Assembly (NCBI GenBank): GCA_035532335.1
Contig: DATKRE010000001.1
Span: 3,555-67,554 of the forward strand
Length of the DNA stretch: 64,000 bases
From: Xanthobacteraceae bacterium
GTDB taxonomy: Bacteria > Pseudomonadota > Alphaproteobacteria > Rhizobiales > Xanthobacteraceae
Direction: 5' to 3'
Part shown: piece after piece, positions 15,275 through 24,766 of the stretch
Position numbering within the stretch: position 1 is the first letter of the stretch
Layout: each line of letters opens with the position of its first letter
Program-made: the position numbers and the translations under genes
The notes under the pieces: generated by a model
The model's database searches: none
Told to the model about the DNA's origin: nothing
What the model saw: the letters and a program-made list of their open reading frames with translations, nothing else

Positions 15275-15459
15275 TGAGACCTCTGAACGATCCAGGCGCT
15301 AGGTGACCAGATAACCACCGGCCCCACCAGTGAGACATTTAAAGGCAAGAGAGTTCTTTATCCCCCGAAGGTCCATACCCTCTGAAGTGGCGTCCCCCGG
15401 AGGAAAATGCCTCTTATTGTCGCTGCGGCGTCCGCGCTGTTACGGCGTAGCCCGTGGCT

Positions 15460-15485
15460 AACCTGTCGGGGACTGATCGGGTTCC
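15460..15485 (-). promoter_or_regulatory. EcfG-type (general stress ECF sigma) promoter motif GGAAC-N17-GGTT facing the PPP operon
   Basis: The minus strand reads cttccGGAACccgatcagtccccgacaGGTTagcca. The motif is 186 nt upstream of the HAD start at 15274. Confidence 0.5.
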
Positions 15486-15506
15486 GGAAGCAGGCCGCTT
15501 CAGAGG

Positions 15507-15514
15507 ATCAAATT
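15507..15514. repeat. left copy of the 8-bp target-site duplication ATCAAATT
   Basis: An identical octamer directly abuts both ends of the element (15507-15514 and 18082-18089). Confidence 0.85.
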
Positions 15515-15538
15515 CACAATTATATCGTTGACAACACA
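15515..15538 (+). repeat. left terminal inverted repeat CACAATTATATCGTTGACAACACA
   Basis: It matches the reverse complement of 18058-18081 at 23 of 24 positions (G/T mismatch at 15530). Confidence 0.85.
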
Positions 15539-15556
15539 AGCCACAAGGGCTAGTAT
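15528..15556 (+). promoter_or_regulatory. sigma70-like promoter of the transposase (TTGACA-17 nt-TAGTAT); the -35 lies inside the IRL
   Basis: TTGACA is at 15528-15533 and TAGTAT at 15551-15556, with a 17-nt spacer, 26 nt upstream of the ATG at 15582. Confidence 0.6.
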
Positions 15557-15581
15557 CTGGCCATAATCAAGGGTTTTGGCC

Positions 15582-16523
15582 ATGGATACCTTTTCAGCCC
15601 CGCACTTCCGTACCGACGATGCCGCGCGGACCTATCTCGAACGGCTCCGCTGGCCCGACGGAACGGTCTGCCCGCATTGCGGCGTAATCGGCCATTCATA
15701 CAAAACGCCTACCGTTGGCCGTTACCGCTGCGCTGAGAAGGAATGCCGCAAGGATTTCACCGTGACGGTGAACACTCCTATGGAGCGGTCGCATATCGCC
15801 CTGCACAAGTGGCTACAGGCTTTCCACTTGATGTGTTCCAGCAAGAAGGGGGTGAGCGCGCACCAGCTCCACCGCACTCTCGCCATCACCTACCGTTCGG
15901 CGTGGTTCATGGCACACCGCATTCGCGAGTGCATGCGGACTGGCGGCCTTGCGCCGCTGGGCGGCGCAGGCAAGATCGTAGAGGCCGATGAAACCTATTA
16001 TGGCAAGACGGAAACAGCCCGCGTGCCGGCATATCGGATGGGTCGTCCCTACAAACAAGGCGCAGGGTCACGCGGCCCGCGCGACAAGCGGTCTATTGTC
16101 GCTTTGGTTGAGCGCGGCGGGAACGTCCGTTCGTTCCATGTGCCGATTGCGGATAAGAAAACGGTGACTAGCATCGTGCGCGATAACATCGCCCACGAAA
16201 GCCGCTTGCACACAGATGAAAGTCGCCTCTATTGGGGTTCCGACGAACACTTTGCTTCGCATGAAAGCGTGAAGCACAGCGCGGGTGAGTATGTACGCGA
16301 CGACGTGCATACCAACAGCGCCGAGGGCTACTTCTCAATCTTCAAGCGCGGGATGCGCGGCATCTACCAGCATTGCGGCGAGAAGCATCTGCATCGGTAT
16401 CTCGCTGAGTACGATTTCAGATATAACCACCGATCTGCACTCGGATATAACGACGGGGAACGGGCGGCGCTTGCAATCAAAAGTGCAGACGGCAAGCGTC
16501 TCACGTATCGAAATGCTCACTAA
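15582..16523 (+). CDS. IS1595 family transposase
   Basis: Has the N-terminal zinc-finger pattern (CPHCG...RYRCAEKECRKDFTVT) and a DDE-type core (VEADETYYG, HTDESRLY, NSAEGYFSIFKRGMRG). The ATG at 15582 is preferred over the TTG at 15576 used in the ORF track. Confidence 0.9.
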   Translation: MDTFSAPHFRTDDAARTYLERLRWPDGTVCPHCGVIGHSYKTPTVGRYRCAEKECRKDFTVTVNTPMERSHIALHKWLQAFHLMCSSKKGVSAHQLHRTLAITYRSAWFMAHRIRECMRTGGLAPLGGAGKIVEADETYYGKTETARVPAYRMGRPYKQGAGSRGPRDKRSIVALVERGGNVRSFHVPIADKKTVTSIVRDNIAHESRLHTDESRLYWGSDEHFASHESVKHSAGEYVRDDVHTNSAEGYFSIFKRGMRGIYQHCGEKHLHRYLAEYDFRYNHRSALGYNDGERAALAIKSADGKRLTYRNAH

Positions 16524-16685
16524 ACCTGAGTTTGAATTTCGAGCCGCGCGTTTTCTGCGCTGGCGAAAGAAGCAATCTAAGCGGAAGCCTTAGCCTTGGG
16601 CTTTCGCTTTGGTTGCTTGCGCGGAATGTCTTTCATCGGCTTCGGCGGCGTAGAAAACGCCCCCCGCAAGGCGACATCGAAACGC

Positions 16686-17363
16686 TTATTTGCCACCCGA
16701 TCGCTGTACTTTTCGCTGTTTTTTGTCATCAGGGCCATCGTCGTTAGGGCAGAAAAACTCACGCAAGCTTGGTACGTGACTCAATGCCCGCTGCACCACG
16801 AACGGCGGAATATTGTACAGCTCCGCTTGTTCGGATACGCCGTTCTTTTTTGTACCATTTTTTAAGTATTCGAGACGGCGCTTCATTGGGAACAAAAATT
16901 CCGCCGCCGCAATTTCACCAAGCGTATCGGATGTCGCTGGGTGCCCCAGGTTCAGATCGACGCTGCCCGGCGATTCTCGCAAGATCATGTTCTGCACAAG
17001 CTCAACGATATCGCGAGTTACCAAGGATTCCTGCCATAGATGAATCTGCAACAACTCCTTCGTCTTGTAGAAACGAAGGTACGGCGCCGGCAGACCCTTC
17101 GCGTAATAGATCGCGCACTCTTTGATGGTGTTTTTCTCGCCCTTCGGGACGTAAAAGGATCGGAACTTGGCCTTGGTCCACTCGATCCGCAACCCGCGGT
17201 GATAGATGGGAAACCCATGTCGTCCCATCATGATCAAATGAAGATCTTCCGCCGATCGCGGCAGCCCTTCACCTTCGGCCGCGCCGCAACTTTTATCGTG
17301 ATCGACCGCCACCTCGCGCGTTTTTTGCGCACAAAAGCGGATGAGATCGTTATCGATAAGCAC
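16686..17363 (-). CDS. hypothetical cargo protein with a possible degenerate ImmA/IrrE (M78)-like C-terminal region lacking HExxH
   Basis: A 225-aa ORF with a GTG start at 17363 preceded by GGGAG. The tail EIAAAEFLFPMKRR...GVSEQAELYNIPPFVVQRAL resembles the end of the M78/DUF955 domain, but no HExxH was found. The family assignment is weak. Confidence 0.45.
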   Translation of the reverse strand: MLIDNDLIRFCAQKTREVAVDHDKSCGAAEGEGLPRSAEDLHLIMMGRHGFPIYHRGLRIEWTKAKFRSFYVPKGEKNTIKECAIYYAKGLPAPYLRFYKTKELLQIHLWQESLVTRDIVELVQNMILRESPGSVDLNLGHPATSDTLGEIAAAEFLFPMKRRLEYLKNGTKKNGVSEQAELYNIPPFVVQRALSHVPSLREFFCPNDDGPDDKKQRKVQRSGGK

Positions 17364-17371
17364 GATACATC

Positions 17372-17412
17372 TCCCAAACGCAAAAGCCTCTGAGACGCGC
17401 CGTCTCAGAGGC
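17372..17412 (-). terminator. rho-independent terminator between the two cargo ORFs
   Basis: A perfect 12-bp stem GCCTCTGAGACG / CGTCTCAGAGGC (17386-17397 and 17401-17412) with a 3-nt loop. On the minus strand it is followed by TTTTGCGTTTGGG. Confidence 0.75.
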
Positions 17413-17446
17413 TCCGATTAGGAGACGTGCGGGATTCCGATTTCTT

Positions 17447-17659
17447 TCAACGCCCTTGATTCGAGCGACGTGAATCGCCCAAAGGGGGCAAATCCGAATA
17501 TTCTCTACGCTCGATTGCGTCAAGCGCCTCGTTGATGGACGCGCAAACGCTCTCATCGGTCTCTTCGGCCAAGGGACCAAAGCAAAATTTAATGTCGAGC
17601 GCGCCCGCCGCTTGGAGAGCGCGGTATTTCTCTTTCAAAGTCTCTGCCTGCGTGCTCAT
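17447..17659 (-). CDS. hypothetical small acidic cargo protein (70 aa)
   Basis: The ORF is 17447..17677. The internal ATG at 17659 has a strong GGAGGA Shine-Dalgarno 5 nt upstream, whereas the first ATG has none. No family was recognised. Confidence 0.5.
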   Translation of the reverse strand: MSTQAETLKEKYRALQAAGALDIKFCFGPLAEETDESVCASINEALDAIERREYSDLPPLGDSRRSNQGR

Positions 17660-18057
17660 GGCGTCCTCCGGGAACATCCAGTCCCGCCGTTCAAACGATA
17701 TAATACTGTACTACGGCCAACAGATGACACAACGTCCGAGGCACGGAAAAGTTACCCGGAAGGTAACTTTGGCCGCCCAAGTGACATTTCGGGCGACTTT
17801 TCCCCCAGTTTCGGCGGCCGTGACCGCAGATTCCCCCGTAGATGGAGGGTTTATAGGGCGAGTCAAGTTAAATCTTCGGTAATGCGTCCCGTCGACGTAG
17901 CCGAATCGAGGACCGGGAAGCGGAATTGATGCATTTAAAATGCATAATCCGCCGATCCGGTCTTTTCCCTCTGGACGCGCCAGCGCGGCGATCTGACTTC
18001 ATCTCGGCCTAGACTTCCGCACGGACAGACCACAATACATCCACAATACATAGTGTG

Positions 18058-18081
18058 TGTGTTGTAAACGATATAATTGTG
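18058..18081 (-). repeat. right terminal inverted repeat (complement reads CACAATTATATCGTTTACAACACA)
   Basis: See the IRL feature. It is directly followed by the ATCAAATT target-site duplication. Confidence 0.85.
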
Positions 18082-18089
18082 ATCAAATT
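18082..18089. repeat. right copy of the 8-bp target-site duplication ATCAAATT
   Basis: Identical to 15507-15514. Confidence 0.85.
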
Positions 18090-18173
18090 CCCATCGATAG
18101 AAGCCTGCCAGATGCCGTCGCGTGGGAGCGGGCACGCCAGTTAGAATTTTCTTCACTAAATGAGCTTTTGGCC

Positions 18174-18198
18174 GGAACTTCCGGGTTTGCCTCGCGTT
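18174..18198 (+). promoter_or_regulatory. EcfG-type promoter motif GGAAC-N16-CGTT facing the poly-HAMP kinase
   Basis: The plus strand reads gccGGAACttccgggtttgcctcgCGTTtgggg. The motif is 224 nt upstream of the ATG at 18422. Confidence 0.5.
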
Positions 18199-18421
18199 TG
18201 GGGTTGAAAGCGCGGGTGAGGCCCGAATTTGAGGGGGAGTCTACGTTCGCATAGCAACTCGTGGCGGTGGGGCGCGATCCCGCCGCGCGCGTTGCGCTGC
18301 GATGTGGTGATCCCTCCGCGCCCGGCTCTTTCGCAGCCTCAAAGGCCGGATAGCTGCGCTTCATCGGCCAATAATCGCCTCCCGGACAAGGTCCACCCCA
18401 TAGGGGGTTTCGGAGAGTTTC

Positions 18422-21400
18422 ATGCAGACCCCTGAAGACGTGATTGGCTCCTCGAACGCCAACGGTTCCGCTATGGCCGAGAATATTCCCCAGACGACGG
18501 CGCGCGGGGTCGACGGGGATGTCCAAGGTTTGGACGTTCAAGGTTTGGACGCTCAAGGTTTGGCGGAATTGCTGAACGCGCTCCAGACCATGCGGGTCGG
18601 TGATTTTTCCGTCCGCATGGCCCGCGACCGAGTCGGGATCATTGGCAAGATTGCCGATACTTTCAACGAAATCGTCGCCACCAACCAGCGGATGGCAAAG
18701 CAGCTCGAACGCGTTGGTCAGGTTGTCGGGCGCGACGGACGGACACGCCAACGCGTGCGCTTCGGTCTGTCCGACGGTGCCTGGGGTGAGATGGAAACCT
18801 CGGTCAATTCGCTGATCGACGATTTGCTATGGCCGACGACGGAAGTGACGCGCGCCGTCGCTGCGGTGGCGCAAGGCGATCTCTTGCAAACAGTGCAGCT
18901 CGACGTTGACGGCCGGCCGCTGAAGGGTGAGTTCCTGCGTTCCGCCGAAATCGTCAATACGATGATCAAACAGCTCAACGTGTTCACCTCCGAGGTGACC
19001 CGCGTCGCGCGCGAGGTCGGCACCGAAGGCAAACTCGGCGGCCAGGCCCAAGTCGGCGGTGTCACCGGCGTGTGGAAAGACCTCACGGAGAGCGTCAATT
19101 CGATGGCGTCGAACTTGACCGCGCAAGTGCGCAACATCGCCGATGTGACGATAGCGGTCGCCAACGGCGACTTGTCTAAGAAAATCACCGTCGACGTGCG
19201 CGGCGAAATTCTGCAATTGAAGGAAGCCATCAACACGATGGTCGATCAATTGCGCTCCTTCGCCTCCGAAGTGACGCGCGTCGCCCGCGAAGTCGGCACC
19301 GACGGCAAGCTCGGCGGCCAGGCGATCGTGCCCGGCGTCGCCGGCACGTGGAAGGACTTGACCGACTCGGTCAACGCCATGTGCGGCAATCTTACCGACC
19401 AGGTCCGCAACATCGCGCACGTGACGACGGCGGTTGCGCGCGGTGACTTGTCGCGCAAAATTACGGTCGACGTGCGCGGCGAAATTCTCAAGCTGAAAGA
19501 CACCATCAACACGATGGTGGACCAGCTCAACGGTTTCGCGTCGGAAGTGACGCGCGTCGCCCGCGAGGTCGGCACCGAAGGCAAGCTCGGCGGTCAGGCG
19601 CAGGTGCCCGGCGTCGCCGGCACCTGGAAGGATTTGACCGACAGCGTCAACTTCATGGCCGGCAACTTGACGGCGCAGGTCCGCAATATCGCCGACGTGG
19701 CGACCGCGATCGCCGGCGGCGATTTGTCGAAGAAAATTACGGTGAATGTCAGCGGCGAGATCTTGCAGTTGAAAGAGACCATCAACACGATGGTCGATCA
19801 GCTCAATGCGTTCGCCGGCGAAGTCACCCGCGTTGCGCGCGAGGTCGGCACCGACGGCCGCCTTGGCGGCCAGGCCAACGTGCGCGGCGTTGCCGGCACC
19901 TGGAAGGACTTGACGGATTCGGTGAATTCGATGGCGTCGAACCTGACCGCGCAGGTGCGCAACATCGCTGAAGTGTCGACCGCTATCGCCAGCGGCGACT
20001 TGTCGAAAAAGATCACGGTCGACGTGCGCGGGGAAATTGCCGAGCTGAAAGACACCATCAACACGATGGTGGACCAGCTCAATGCCTTTGCCGGGGAGGT
20101 GACGCGCGTGGCGCGCGAGGTCGGCACCGAAGGCAAGCTCGGCGGTCAGGCCATGGTGCGCGGCGTTGCCGGCACCTGGAAGGATTTGACCGACTCGGTC
20201 AACTCGATGGCGTCGAACCTCACCGGTCAGGTGCGCAACATCGCCGAAGTGGCGACCGCGGTGGCCCGCGGCGACCTTTCGCGCAAGATCACCGTGGACG
20301 TGCGGGGCGAAATTCTCGAACTGAAAGACACGCTCAACACGATGGTCGATCAGCTCAACGCCTTTGCCGCCGAGGTGACGCGCGTCGCGCGCGAAGTCGG
20401 CACCGAAGGCAAGCTCGGTGGTCAAGCCAACGTGCCGGGCGTCGGCGGCACCTGGAAGGATTTGACCGACTCGGTAAATTCGATGGCCTCGAACCTCACC
20501 GGGCAGGTGCGCAACATCGCCGAGGTGGCGACGGCAATCGCCGGTGGCGACCTTTCGCGCAAGATCACCGTCGACGTACGCGGCGAGATTTTGCAGTTGA
20601 AGGAAACCCTCAACACCATGGTCGACCAGCTCAACCGCTTCGCCGGCGAGGTGACGCGCGTTGCCCGCGAGGTCGGCACCGAAGGTCGCCTCGGCGGTCA
20701 GGCGAACGTGCCAGGTGTCGCCGGCACCTGGAAGGACTTGACGGATTCGGTCAACTCGATGGCCGGCAACCTCACCGCGCAAGTGCGCAACATCGCCGAA
20801 GTGACCACGGCGGTGGCCCGCGGCGACCTTTCGCGCAAGATCACCGTCGACGTTAAAGGCGAAATTCTCGAGCTGAAAAACACCATCAATACGATGGCGG
20901 ACCAGCTCAACGCATTCGCCTCCGAAGTGACGCGCGTCGCCCGCGAAGTCGGAACTGAAGGCAAGCTCGGCGGCCAGGCGCAGGTGCTCGGTGTCGCCGG
21001 CACCTGGAAGGACCTGACCGACAACGTCAACTTCATGGCTTCGAACTTGACCGCGCAGGTGCGCAACATTGCCGAAGTGGCGACAGCAATCGCCGGCGGC
21101 GACCTGTCGAAGAAGATCACGGTCGACGTGCGCGGCGAGATGCTGTTCCTCAAAGACACGCTCAACACGATGGTTGAGCAATTGCGTTCGTTCGCCGCCG
21201 AAGTGACGCGTGTCGCCCGCGAGGTCGGCGCCGACGGTCGTCTCGGCGGTCAGGCCGTGGTTCCCGGCGTCGCCGGCACCTGGAAAGACTTGACCGACAA
21301 CGTCAACTTGCTCGCCGCAAACCTGACGACGCAAGTCCGTAACATCGCCGAGGTGACGACGGCGGTGGCGCGCGGCGACCTGTCGCGCAAGATTACGGTC

Positions 21401-24400
21401 GACGTTAAGGGCGAAATCCTGGAGCTGAAGAACACCATCAACACCATGGTGGACCAGCTCAATGGTTTCGCGTCGGAAGTTACCCGCGTTGCGCGTGAAG
21501 TCGGCACCGAGGGACTGCTCGGCGGCCAGGCGCAAGTGCCCGGCGTCGCCGGTACCTGGAAGGACTTGACCGATACGGTGAACGTCATGGCCGCCAACCT
21601 GACCGAGCAGGTGCGCGGTATTGTGAAGGTCGTGACTGCGGTCGCCAACGGCGACCTGAAGCAAAACCTTGCCGTGAAATCGAAAGGCGAGGTCGCGGCG
21701 CTTGCCGAAACCATCAACAGTATGACGGATACACTTGCGACCTTTGCCGACCAGGTGACCACGGTGGCGCGCGAGGTCGGCGTCGAAGGTCGTCTTGGCG
21801 GCCAGGCGAATGTGCCCGGCGCTGCCGGCACTTGGAAGGACTTGACCGGCAACGTCAATCTGCTTGCCGCCAATCTGACCACGCAGGTGCGCGCCATCGC
21901 CGAAGTGGCGACGGCGGTGACCAAGGGTGACCTGACGCGATCGATTCAAGTCGAAGCGCGCGGCGAAGTGGCCGAGCTCAAGGACAACATCAATACGATG
22001 ATCGACAACTTGCGGCTGACCACCGACCGCAACACCGAGCAGGATTGGCTGAAGACGAACCTCGCAAAATTCACCAACATGCTGCAAGGCCAGCGTGATC
22101 TGACGGCCGTCGGCCGCTTGCTGCTCTCCGAGCTGGCTCCTCTGGTCAACGCTCACCAGGGCGTTATCTATCAGATGGAAGGCGACGAGCGGCAGAGTAG
22201 TCTCAATCTGCTGTCGGCCTACGCCGACGACAATACGAACGGCCATCCGGATAGCTTCCGTCTTGGTCAAGGCCTGATTGGACAGTGCGCGCTCGACAAA
22301 CGGCGCATGTTGATTACCGACATGCCGGAAGGCGCTGTTCCCATTAGCTCGGCACTGTTCAGGGAATCGCCCCGCAACAATATCGTGTTGCCGGTCCTGT
22401 TCGAGAATCAGGTTAAGGCGGTGATCGAACTTGCGTCGATGCACGAATTCACGACGCTGCAAACCATATTCCTCGAGCAGCTTACGACCTCGATCGGTAT
22501 CGTGCTCAATTCGATCGAGGCGACAATGCAGACCGAGGGCCTGCTCAAGCAATCGCAGCAGTTAGCCGGCGAATTGCAGGCGCAACAGAAAGAATTGCAA
22601 AAAACCAACGAGCAACTTGAGCAGAAGGCGCAACAACTTGCCGAGCGCAACGTCGAAGTCGAGCGCAAGAATCAGGAAATCGAGCAGGCCCGCCGCGCGG
22701 TGGAGGAGAAGGCGACCGAACTGGCGCTAACCTCCAAGTACAAATCGGAATTCCTGGCCAACATGTCGCACGAGTTGCGCACGCCGCTCAACTCGATCCT
22801 GATCCTCGGCCAGCAGCTCACCGACAATCCCGAGGGCAATCTGAGCGGCAAGCAGGTCGAGTTCGCCAGAACGATCCATGGTGCCGGCACCGATTTGCTC
22901 AATCTCATCAGCGATATCTTGGATTTGTCTAAGATCGAGTCCGGTACCGTGACCGTCGATGCCGAGGAGGTCTTCTTCTCGAACTTGCTCGATATGATGG
23001 CGCGGCCGTTCCGTCATGAAGCGGAAACCCGTCAACTTTCATTCGAGGTTCATTCCGATCAAAATCTCGGGCGGACCATCACCACGGACGCCAAACGCTT
23101 GCAGCAGGTGCTCAAGAATCTGCTGTCGAATGCTTTCAAGTTTACTGCTCAGGGCGGCGTTCGCCTTAACGTCGCCGTATCGCTCGGCGGCTGGAGCGCG
23201 GAGCATCCGGTGCTCAGCCAGGCATCCGCCGTCGTGGCGTTCGAGGTGACGGATACCGGCATCGGTATTCCGCTCGAAAAACAGAAGATTATCTTCGAAG
23301 CATTCCAGCAAGCCGACGCGTCGACCAGCCGGAAATATGGCGGCACCGGTCTCGGTCTCGCCATCAGCCGCGAACTGGCGAGCCTGCTCGGAGGCGAGAT
23401 TCATCTGCGTAGCTCGCCCGGGTCCGGATCGACGTTCACGCTCTATCTGCCGATCAAATATGTCGGCCCGAGCGCGACAACGCACGTCGCCACGGCCGTG
23501 TCGATGCCCTCGCCACAATTGTTGGGACTTCACATTGCCGCCGACCGCACGATCGAGCCGATCCCCGATGACCGGATGGACATTCAGGCCGGCGACAGCA
23601 TTCTTCTCATCGTTGAGGACGATCCGCATTACGCCCGCATTTTGATCGACCTCGCGCGCGACAAGGGTTTCAAGGCGCTATTGGCGATGCGCGGCGATGA
23701 TGCACTCAATCTTGCCAAGCAGTATCAGCCAACTGCGGTTTCGCTCGATGTATTCCTGCCGGACATGCTTGGTTGGAATGTGCTCAGTCAGCTCAAGCAG
23801 AATCCCCTAACCCGGCATATTCCGGTGCAGATTGTGTCGCTCGACGAAGATCGCGAGCATGGTCTGGCGCGCGGTGCGTTTGCCTTCGTCAACAAACCGA
23901 CGACGCGCGAAGACATTGACGTGGCGCTGTCCCGTATCAAGGAATTTACCAAGCCACGTCGCAAGCGCCTGTTGATCGTCGAGGACAATTCCGTCGAGCG
24001 GATGAGCATCCACGCTTTGCTCGACCATGACGATATCGATATCGTGAACGCGGCCACGGGCGGCGAGGCATTGAGTACGCTGCACGACAAATCATGCGAT
24101 TGCGTGGTTCTCGACCTTCGTCTTCCAGATATGTCGGGCTTTGAGGTGCTGGAGCGCATGCGCGCGGATAGTTCGCTTGCCGACATTCCGGTCGTCGTAT
24201 TCACGGGCCGGGAATTGTCTGCCGCGGAAGATGCCCAGCTTCATACCATGGCGCGCAGCATCGTGGTGAAAGGGGTCGAATCGCCCGAGCGGTTGCTTAA
24301 CGAGACCGCGCTGTTCCTGCATCGCGTCATCACCGATTTGCCGGCCGAGAAACAGCATATGCTGGAACGGCTCAATAGCTCCGACGAGGATCTCGTCGGG

Positions 24401-24766
24401 CGTACCGTACTTCTGGTCGACGACGATCCGCGTAACATCTTTGCCCTGTCGAGCGCGCTGGAACGCCGTGGCATGAACGTGCTCACTGCGACGACGGGGG
24501 CCGAGGCGATTACGCTCATCGAGGAAACGCCGGCGCTCGCTATCGTGCTGATGGACATCATGATGCCGGAGATGGACGGCTATCAAACGATCGAGAAAAT
24601 CCGTCAAGACCAGGCCCATCGCCGCTTGCCGATCATTGCCTTGACCGCCAAGGCGATGAAGGGCGATCGCGAAAAATGCCTACAGGCCGGGGCATCGGAC
24701 TATCTCGCCAAGCCTGTTAACACCGAGCAACTCCTGTCCGCGCTGCGGATGTGGTTGCATCGCTAG
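18422..24766 (+). CDS. giant cytoplasmic hybrid sensor histidine kinase: poly-HAMP array, GAF, coiled coil, HisKA, HATPase, three receiver domains (2114 aa)
   Basis: No TM segment is visible. About 25 HAMP-like modules are present. A GAF-like region runs from about 22090 to 22520. The H-box is [15 protein letters not shown], with G-boxes (DTGIGI, GGTGLGL). Three REC domains carry the phospho-Asp contexts [18 protein letters not shown] and [15 protein letters not shown] lies 8 nt before the ATG. Confidence 0.9.
18521..18565 (+). repeat. three tandem 15-bp units (GTCCAAGGTTTGGAC-like) encoding [15 protein letters not shown]
   Basis: The units are gtccaaggtttggac, gttcaaggtttggac and gctcaaggtttggcg, read directly from the sequence. 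Confidence 0.8.
18983..22018 (+). repeat. 11 in-frame tandem copies of a 276-bp (92-aa) unit, each unit being two concatenated HAMP-like modules
   Basis: Each unit begins F(A/T)[11 protein letters not shown] and contains [20 protein letters not shown](R/K)KITVDV and NTMVDQL. I counted 11 units by hand. Copies differ mostly at synonymous sites. Confidence 0.9.

Follow-up and report, generated by a model that had tools for sequence, protein, structure and literature searches.

A 2.57-kb element at positions 15515-18081 of a 64,000-nt stretch of contig DATKRE010000001.1 (hereafter the window) is, with high confidence, an intact transporter insertion sequence (tIS) of the IS1595 family. Between its ends lie a transposase gene (tnp), a 53-aa backbone open reading frame (orf3), and two passenger genes that encode a 70-aa protein and a 225-aa divergent relative of Peptidase_M78. 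Considered as a whole, the evidence makes a strong case for a mobile tIS with a cargo slot, occupied by an operon that is probably toxin-antitoxin (TA)-like or defence-like. Three hallmarks of the IS1595 family are found together here, namely a transposase encoded by a single open reading frame (ORF) with zinc ribbon and DDE domain, terminal inverted repeats (IRs), and a duplicated target of about 8 bp. With the tISs of the IS1595 family the element shares the zinc-ribbon DDE transposase, short IRs, duplication of about 8 bp and internal passengers; the tIS class reportedly occurs only in the IS1595 and IS66 families (bioRxiv 10.1101/2021.05.26.445724).

Ends and transposase of the element

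The left IR (IRL, 15515-15538, plus strand) is the 24-nt sequence CACAATTATATCGTTGACAACACA, and the right IR (IRR, 18058-18081, minus strand) differs from it by a single mismatch (G to T). A repeat search returned the two as the longest inverted pair of the region (25 nt, 96%), and with up to three mismatches allowed they are the only two sites in the whole 64-kb window, where none is expected (100 shuffles). Immediately outside both IRs stands the same octamer, ATCAAATT, at 15507-15514 on the left and 18082-18089 on the right; the chance of such a match on both sides is about 1 in 65,000. Some terminal IR bases coincide with flank bases, and depending on how these are assigned the target-site duplication (TSD) is 8 bp or as much as 10 bp long (GATCAAATTC). 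An earlier note on this DNA had described a 24-nt inverted repeat with one mismatch and identical flanking octamers, and had seen here an element that kept both; the two repeats and the octamers were recovered at these positions, no third copy of the repeat exists in the window, and 15515-18081 is an intact unit. IRL also holds a -35 hexamer, TTGACA (15528-15533), followed by a -10 element, TAGTAT (15551-15556), which together form a promoter-like site upstream of tnp.

The tnp gene (15582-16523, plus strand) is one uninterrupted ORF for a 313-aa transposase, in which profile searches revealed an N-terminal zinc ribbon and an IS1595-family DDE domain. The protein matches PF12760 (2.2e-14), PF12762 (1.3e-32) and NF033547 'IS1595 family transposase' (1.2e-58), the last with a score of 198.5 against a cut-off of 75 bits, and all three matches agree with the family that the earlier note had proposed. 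A 100% identical protein is listed at NCBI as 'MAG TPA: IS1595 family transposase [Xanthobacteraceae bacterium]'. In a plasmid collection the transposase part of the element has relatives of 69-75% identity in alphaproteobacterial plasmids; no relatives of the cargo were found in that collection. The GC content is 0.57-0.61 in tnp, 0.51-0.56 over 16500-18150 and about 0.56-0.65 in the flanks, and the drop in GC outside tnp that had been remarked on before is real. It is proposed that the DDE transposase acts on both 24-nt IRs and would move everything between them as one unit, duplicating about 8 bp at the target.

Passenger-bearing elements of the ISNwi1 group range from about 1.7 to 4.7 kb. 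The ends of that group read ggnnatTAT, a consensus that the CACAATTAT of this element fits, and the element is a candidate member of the subgroup.

Related elements end beyond their passengers

Six independent elements in other metagenomes were checked for their ends (L008, L022, L023, L029, L037 and L016). Five of the six (L008, L022, L023, L029 and L037) have the IR core ATATCGTTGAC at their ends; some right arms deviate from it by one or two substitutions. In L008/L010, L022, L023, L029 and L037 the right IR lies beyond the passenger genes and has a flanking duplication of its own. These duplications (CTAAAAA in L008, CAAACATG in L022, ACTTTTTT in L023 and AATATAAT in L029) can be read as 7-9 bp, and that of L037 is longer (GGGCTGTTTTCC). 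The transposase of L008 (P0254) is 81% identical to that of the window and its cargo protein 57% identical; the transposase of L022 (P0248) is 80% identical. Both elements have the gene order of the window, with a small gene, a large gene, a tiny ORF and a convergent IS1595 transposase gene, and the three can be aligned end to end. The transposases of L023, L029 and L037 (P0245, P0241 and P0280; 83%, 84% and 79% identical) belong to elements of about 3.2, 2.5 and 4.4 kb, respectively, that have the common IR core, duplications of their own and a right IR past the passengers. The L016 element, in a metagenome-assembled genome (MAG) of candidate division FCPU426, is an IS1595 element of 3.8 kb whose IRs are unrelated and whose duplication measures 8 bp (CTATTTCT); it encloses a very distant homologous pair of small and M78-like genes.

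These comparisons bear directly on the possibility that the true IS is only the left part of about 1.2 kb (IRL, tnp and orf3), with the 70-aa and 225-aa genes as chromosomal neighbours and the sequence at 18058-18081 as a solitary IR or a fortuitous match. Ordinary IS1595-family elements are as large as the backbone by itself (about 1.17 kb plus an IR), the GC content of the cargo is below that of tnp, and the same gene pair is found without a nearby transposase in L007, L014 and L015. The 8-bp duplication, however, sits at the outer ends, as do the assembly-graph breaks described below; in two other elements the same IRs enclose this cargo in collinear order, and a separate TSD flanks each of them; and no IR-like sequence exists near 16.6-16.7 kb, at the junction of backbone and cargo, with up to five mismatches allowed. 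We regard this possibility as highly improbable and already largely refuted. The earlier note had allowed that copies of the element might end near 16.6 kb, had asked whether other copies carry the same cargo, and had expected a duplication logic in relatives; related elements end beyond the cargo instead, L008 and L022 carry the same pair in the same order, and flanking repeats of their own stand outside the cargo in all six elements checked. An internal IR remnant at that junction, which would point to capture of the cargo through an alternative IRR, was looked for and not found with up to five mismatches allowed.

Evidence of recent mobility

A Logan contig of 2,625 nt from three samples (L003) equals window positions 15486-18110 at 100% identity, that is, the element with a short piece of each flank. 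The predicted empty site is GCTTCAGAGGATCAAATTCCCATCGATAG, and the predicted empty junction contains CAGAGGATCAAATTCCCATCG. At the left junction the filled allele reads ATCAAATTC followed by A and the predicted empty allele ATCAAATTC followed by C, so that the first differing base is 15516, and L003 starts 30 nt earlier; at the right junction the last differing base is 18080, and L003 ends 30 nt later. Two left-flank contigs, L034 (SRR8554483) and L033 (SRR8554501), have 15515 as their very last base, which gives a 30-nt overlap with L003. The same geometry of contig breaks surrounds the L008 element (L010, 2,496 nt). Logan assemblies use k = 31, and breaks 30 nt outside the ends correspond to k-1, the pattern that a de Bruijn graph yields where a flank continues in two ways. 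From these breaks we infer that filled and unfilled alleles coexist in the sampled metagenomes, which in turn suggests that the unit was mobile recently. Contig ends caused by a multicopy repeat were considered and rejected, since a repeat would run the flank contigs 30 nt into the IS; the opposite was observed, with the IS contig continuing into each flank for 30 nt, while the flank contig stops at the last shared base.

A fixed backbone with one cargo slot

The 53-aa orf3 (16577-16738, minus strand) is convergent with tnp and encodes a very basic protein (...RFDVALRGAFSTPPKPMKDIPRKQPKRKPKAKASA) with the motif RRF[DE]AALRGAF.TPPKPMKDIPRK followed by a K/R tail; it has no match in Pfam or PADLOC. 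Within the minus-strand operon it comes last, and it shares bases with the 3' end of the 225-aa gene. A homologue occupies the same position in L008, L022, L023 and L029/L030 regardless of the cargo, indicating that orf3 is a gene of the IS backbone and not of the cargo. Nucleotide homology between the window element and L023 runs from 15513 to about 16684 and resumes at about 18041 to the end (the last 45 nt or so); with L029 it is continuous to about 16535, includes a short match up to about 16672, and again resumes at about 18041 to the end. These alignments indicate that the element is a fixed backbone (IRL, tnp, orf3 and IRR) with one slot (about 16685-18040) that measures about 1.36 kb. 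Passengers lie between orf3 and IRR in all cases examined, on the orf3 strand and upstream of orf3, and the cargo thus appears, from the gene arrangement, to have entered between orf3 and the promoter that is presumed for it near IRR. The earlier note had placed cargo between the ends and counted two or three minus-strand ORFs of unknown function. The 225-aa and 70-aa genes do lie inside the IRs, within the narrower limits of the slot, and three of the ORFs are real by conservation; the 53-aa one belongs to the backbone and not to the cargo.

The contents of the slot differ between elements. The window, L008 and L022 carry the 70-aa and M78-like proteins, as does L017 judging by gene order; L023 carries an AbiLi-like ATPase (PADLOC, 2.6e-45) and a DUF3226 protein; L029 carries proteins of 68 and 270 aa, the latter with a sub-threshold HNH_5 match, together with a 58-aa ORF just after tnp; and L037 carries ORFs of 54, 48, 237 and 191 aa, with a 99-aa ORF upstream of tnp. 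No cargo-less sister was found on long contigs, and all three close transposase relatives examined (P0245, P0241 and P0280) are accompanied by cargo.

Several observations on the backbone and the sister elements deserve mention in their own right. The most conserved DNA of the element is 16458-16577, which comprises the last 66 nt of tnp and the 54-nt gap to orf3; it is 92-97% conserved across elements that are otherwise 50-85% identical, exceeding what coding constraint alone would lead one to expect. A 20-nt imperfect inverted repeat (16548-16567 and 16641-16660) spans the 3' region of orf3. The L023 element (L023:3920-7180; JGI 3300054682, also GCA_037025085.1) is a sister tIS of about 3.2 kb with an abortive-infection system on a one-transposase IS. 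The region L028/L029:2900-8900 contains three IS1595-family transposase genes within 6 kb, of which the middle, cargo-bearing element measures about 2.5 kb, and another small basic orf3-like ORF (53 aa) lies outside that element. The left flank of the 4.4-kb element at L037:3621-8045 ends in the IR-like sequence TATAATTA, which may be the trace of a tandem or nested insertion. A different IS1595-type element at L021:5187-6950 (IR TCATGCTTATCCGGTTGACACA, flanks CACCAAT) appears to have entered a homologue of the 70-aa gene at the 3' end, altering the C-terminus of the encoded protein; the same contig has two copies of a 351-aa TnpB/Cas12f-like gene.

The 225-aa protein has an M78-like fold

The second cargo gene (16686-17363, minus strand) encodes the 225-aa protein, whose assignment to the Peptidase_M78 (IrrE/ImmA/CapP-like) group comes from structure prediction and from Pfam matches of its relatives. 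The AlphaFold2 (AF2) model, built from 26 homologues, has a pLDDT (predicted local distance difference test) of 82.8 and a pTM (predicted template modelling score) of 0.81, and its only significant PDB matches in Foldseek are IrrE (3dti), CapP (7t5t) and PprI (8slm), all at probability 1.0. In the viral library BFVD, phage IrrE-like proteins rank first for the same model. Among 5.8 billion proteins there are 33 homologous clusters, all metagenomic, and an exhaustive profile search extends the number of related clusters to 277. PF06114 (Peptidase_M78) is matched individually by 42 of 70 sampled relatives, the best at 2.4e-8. Searches of PDB sequences with profiles were less productive: two family alignments gave no significant match, and a single distant member found nothing. 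An alignment to IrrE (RFvtvKElfH against RFTLAHEISH) is weak (E = 0.27) and needs a truncated profile; in it the Lys stands opposite the first His of the IrrE HEISH, in agreement with the fold and Pfam evidence.

In place of HEXXH the protein has KELLQ (K102-E103-L-L-Q106), and in place of the third-ligand Glu it has D146, so that all three zinc ligands are substituted (H to K, H to Q and E to D) and the catalytic Glu is retained. Across the 70 relatives the first position of this motif is K in 69, the second is E in all 70, and the last is H in 56 and Q in 14; the presumed third ligand, at position 146, is E in 67. The model and the alignments indicate that the 225-aa protein has the M78 fold and the catalytic Glu but not the canonical zinc ligands.

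The 70-aa protein and the cargo operon

The first cargo gene (17447-17659, minus strand) encodes the 70-aa protein, known from 57 homologues; all full-length loci examined have this gene upstream of the large one. Its AF2 model (pLDDT 76) shows two helices joined by an extended segment, in which no helix-turn-helix (HTH) motif was detected; no match was found in Pfam, NCBIfam or PADLOC, and Foldseek gave no meaningful neighbour.

Between the two genes lies a structured RNA (17355-17440, minus strand), identified by folding against shuffled sequences and by its consensus structure. It comprises a 14-bp hairpin (core 17385-17413) followed by a U-run, a terminator-like arrangement, and around this hairpin an outer helix, in which ACGUCUCC is paired with GGAGAUGU (17421-17428 with 17367-17374), covers the Shine-Dalgarno region of the 225-aa gene. 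The minimum free energy is -44.7 kcal/mol (z = -5.67), and none of 200 shuffles is as stable. Six elements preserve the consensus structure, and 7 of its 20 pairs show compensatory changes. An RNA that is terminator-like and sequesters the ribosome-binding site is predicted to give an excess of the small protein over the large one; it would keep the large protein sub-stoichiometric to the small.

Upstream of the 70-aa gene is a leader or promoter region of the cargo operon (17660-18057, minus strand), which has no conserved ORF and is taken to be non-coding. A segment of about 120 nt in this region (17928-18047) is specific to the window element, with identity lost against L008 and L022. A palindrome with perfect 8-bp arms, ATGCATTT-A-AAATGCAT (17929-17945), stands there upstream of the operon and could be an operator or the remnant of another insertion. 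Rfam gave no match in 15300-18300.

Distribution of the gene pair

The pair is conserved at every locus examined, on IS elements, on islands and on phage contigs, and it is rare: only three distant loci (27-31% identity) were found in 185,579 GTDB species genomes. In L014 and L015 (Zoogloea and gammaproteobacterial MAGs) it adjoins apparent tRNA genes and no IS is present. The pair is an autonomous, rare, mobile two-gene module. Two IMG/VR viral contigs (L036:4485-5393 and L035:1-920) contain a distant pair, with a small protein of the pattern ...GV.DVKF.F... and a large one with CKELFHV; in L036, as read from the sequence, it adjoins apparent P2-type gpD, gpU and tape-measure genes. The P2-type tail-gene region is a frequent site of accessory genes. 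Inside the 3.8-kb tIS of L016, beside the pair, a 109-aa ORF (L016:7186-7515, plus strand) matches Pfam CRISPR_Cas2 above the cut-off (2.1e-6), and this tIS also has a 68-aa ORF that is HTH-like by eye.

Possible functions of the cargo

The cargo operon is compact, its small gene preceding the larger one, and it is mobile and patchily distributed. The same backbone moves unrelated cargo, indicating that the pair is not needed for transposition, and the AbiLi-like system in the slot of L023 indicates that this IS clade ferries defence genes. There is also a precedent for COG2856 proteases with small partners, which were predicted to be TA-like mobile modules (Makarova, Wolf and Koonin 2009; PMC2701414). 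For these reasons we propose, giving it close to an even chance, that the cargo is a conflict module of a TA-like or defence-like kind. In the proposed mechanism the small protein would neutralise or gate an M78-like effector, forming a TA-like or abortive-infection-like module, and the cargo, standing outside the transposition machinery, would serve the IS by way of addiction or phage defence. A more specific proposal, which we put forward as speculative, is that the pair constitutes an undescribed two-component conflict system, made of an IrrE/ImmA-fold protein with KEXXH/Q and a tiny, highly conserved non-HTH partner, and that the IS1595 clade acts as a minimal 'defence shuttle' whose one exchangeable slot also takes AbiL-like and HNH-like modules.

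With ImmA/IrrE (PprI)/CapP the cargo shares the fold, the catalytic Glu, the downstream E..A..E.LFP helix and the organisation as a two-gene mobile module; it differs in having KELLQ (KEXXH in the wider family), in the change of the third ligand from Glu to Asp, in a partner that is an upstream 70-aa two-helix protein rather than a cognate XRE repressor, and in having no evident repressor-controlled downstream genes except orf3. The Xre-COG2856 modules (PMC2701414) likewise combine a small upstream gene with a COG2856-type protein and occur patchily on phages, islands and transposable elements, whereas in the window the partner is not Xre, the protease motif is degenerate, and no RelE or PIN toxin is associated. 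Defence cargo is carried on transposons (Tn7-like; AbiL), and the AbiLi-like ATPase and DUF3226 protein of L023 are a parallel; compared with the large multi-gene Tn7-like carriers, the vehicle here is a minimal one-transposase IS of 2.4-4.4 kb. No protein of the window element has a PADLOC match at E <= 1. What may be new are the conserved orf3, the single exchangeable slot, and the KEXX[HQ] branch of M78 with its non-HTH partner.

Several findings weigh against the reading of the element as a mobile tIS with conflict cargo. In the JGI metagenome contigs there are no matches to the 23-mer of the empty site or to the 24-mer of the right junction, a null that carries no information, as the collection lacks even the filled locus; the empty site put forward in the earlier note has not been recovered there as sequence, and its existence is implied by the contig breaks at the ends. 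Within the 64-kb window there is one copy of the element only. As for the cargo, the 225-aa protein has no direct match in Pfam, NCBIfam or PADLOC and no informative one in PHROG, and the partner that an M78 peptidase would be expected to have, a repressor of the XRE type, is not what accompanies it. Conservation is higher in the small protein than in the large (58-93% against 48-71% identity), the reverse of most type II TA pairs, and the loss of zinc ligands could make the large protein a non-catalytic regulator and not an effector.

In one alternative the pair regulates the element itself, as an ImmA/ImmR-like or CapP/CapH-like stress switch over tnp or orf3. The characterised M78 proteins ImmA, IrrE and CapP are signal-sensing regulators of mobile-element or defence genes (PMC2701414), the pair is co-oriented with and upstream of the backbone gene orf3, and a degenerate metal site suits a binding or regulatory role. 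Sister elements with transposases 79-84% identical, the same IR core and, in L023 and L029/L030, orf3 nevertheless carry unrelated cargo; the pair is also found away from any IS and in phage contigs, and no HTH repressor is present, which makes this alternative unlikely in our judgement. That the cargo is an inert or decaying passenger, a hitch-hiking pseudo-protease, would fit the substitution of all three zinc ligands in this sub-branch and the lack of any family-level annotation. Such decay is hard to reconcile with two intact proteins conserved across dozens of clusters, with confident AF2 models, and with compensatory changes in the intergenic RNA; moreover, the H-to-K change is common to 69 of 70 sampled members, which marks it as an old, selected feature. 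We consider a decaying passenger very unlikely, and the conflict module is the interpretation that we favour.

Insertion site

The element is inserted in a divergent intergenic region of about 570 bp and interrupts no ORF. On its left is a pentose-phosphate/HAD-hydrolase operon (minus strand) for a HAD-hydrolase, transaldolase, PGI, 6PGD and transketolase, and on its right a gene (18422-24766, plus strand) for a 2,114-aa hybrid histidine kinase with HAMP repeats. The same locus was found in ENA soil-metagenome contigs. The IS lies about 330 nt upstream of the start codon of the kinase gene and could affect its promoter. The DNA of the HAMP/HAMP_2 array of the kinase is repetitive, with self-matches of about 76-81% at offsets of multiples of about 276 nt.

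Implications

To our knowledge, tISs are the smallest vehicles known for genes unrelated to transposition, and they have been catalogued and little studied. The element of the window is a clean example of a tIS with signs of recent mobility. It belongs to one IS1595 clade of soil Alphaproteobacteria in which a constant backbone has its passengers swapped at a single position, at least one of them being an abortive-infection system, and this makes the passenger of the window a reasonable candidate for a new conflict system. The cargo is also a natural experiment on the M78 fold without its zinc ligands. Annotation would split such elements into an 'IS1595 transposase' and 'hypothetical proteins', and the mobile unit that they form would be hidden.

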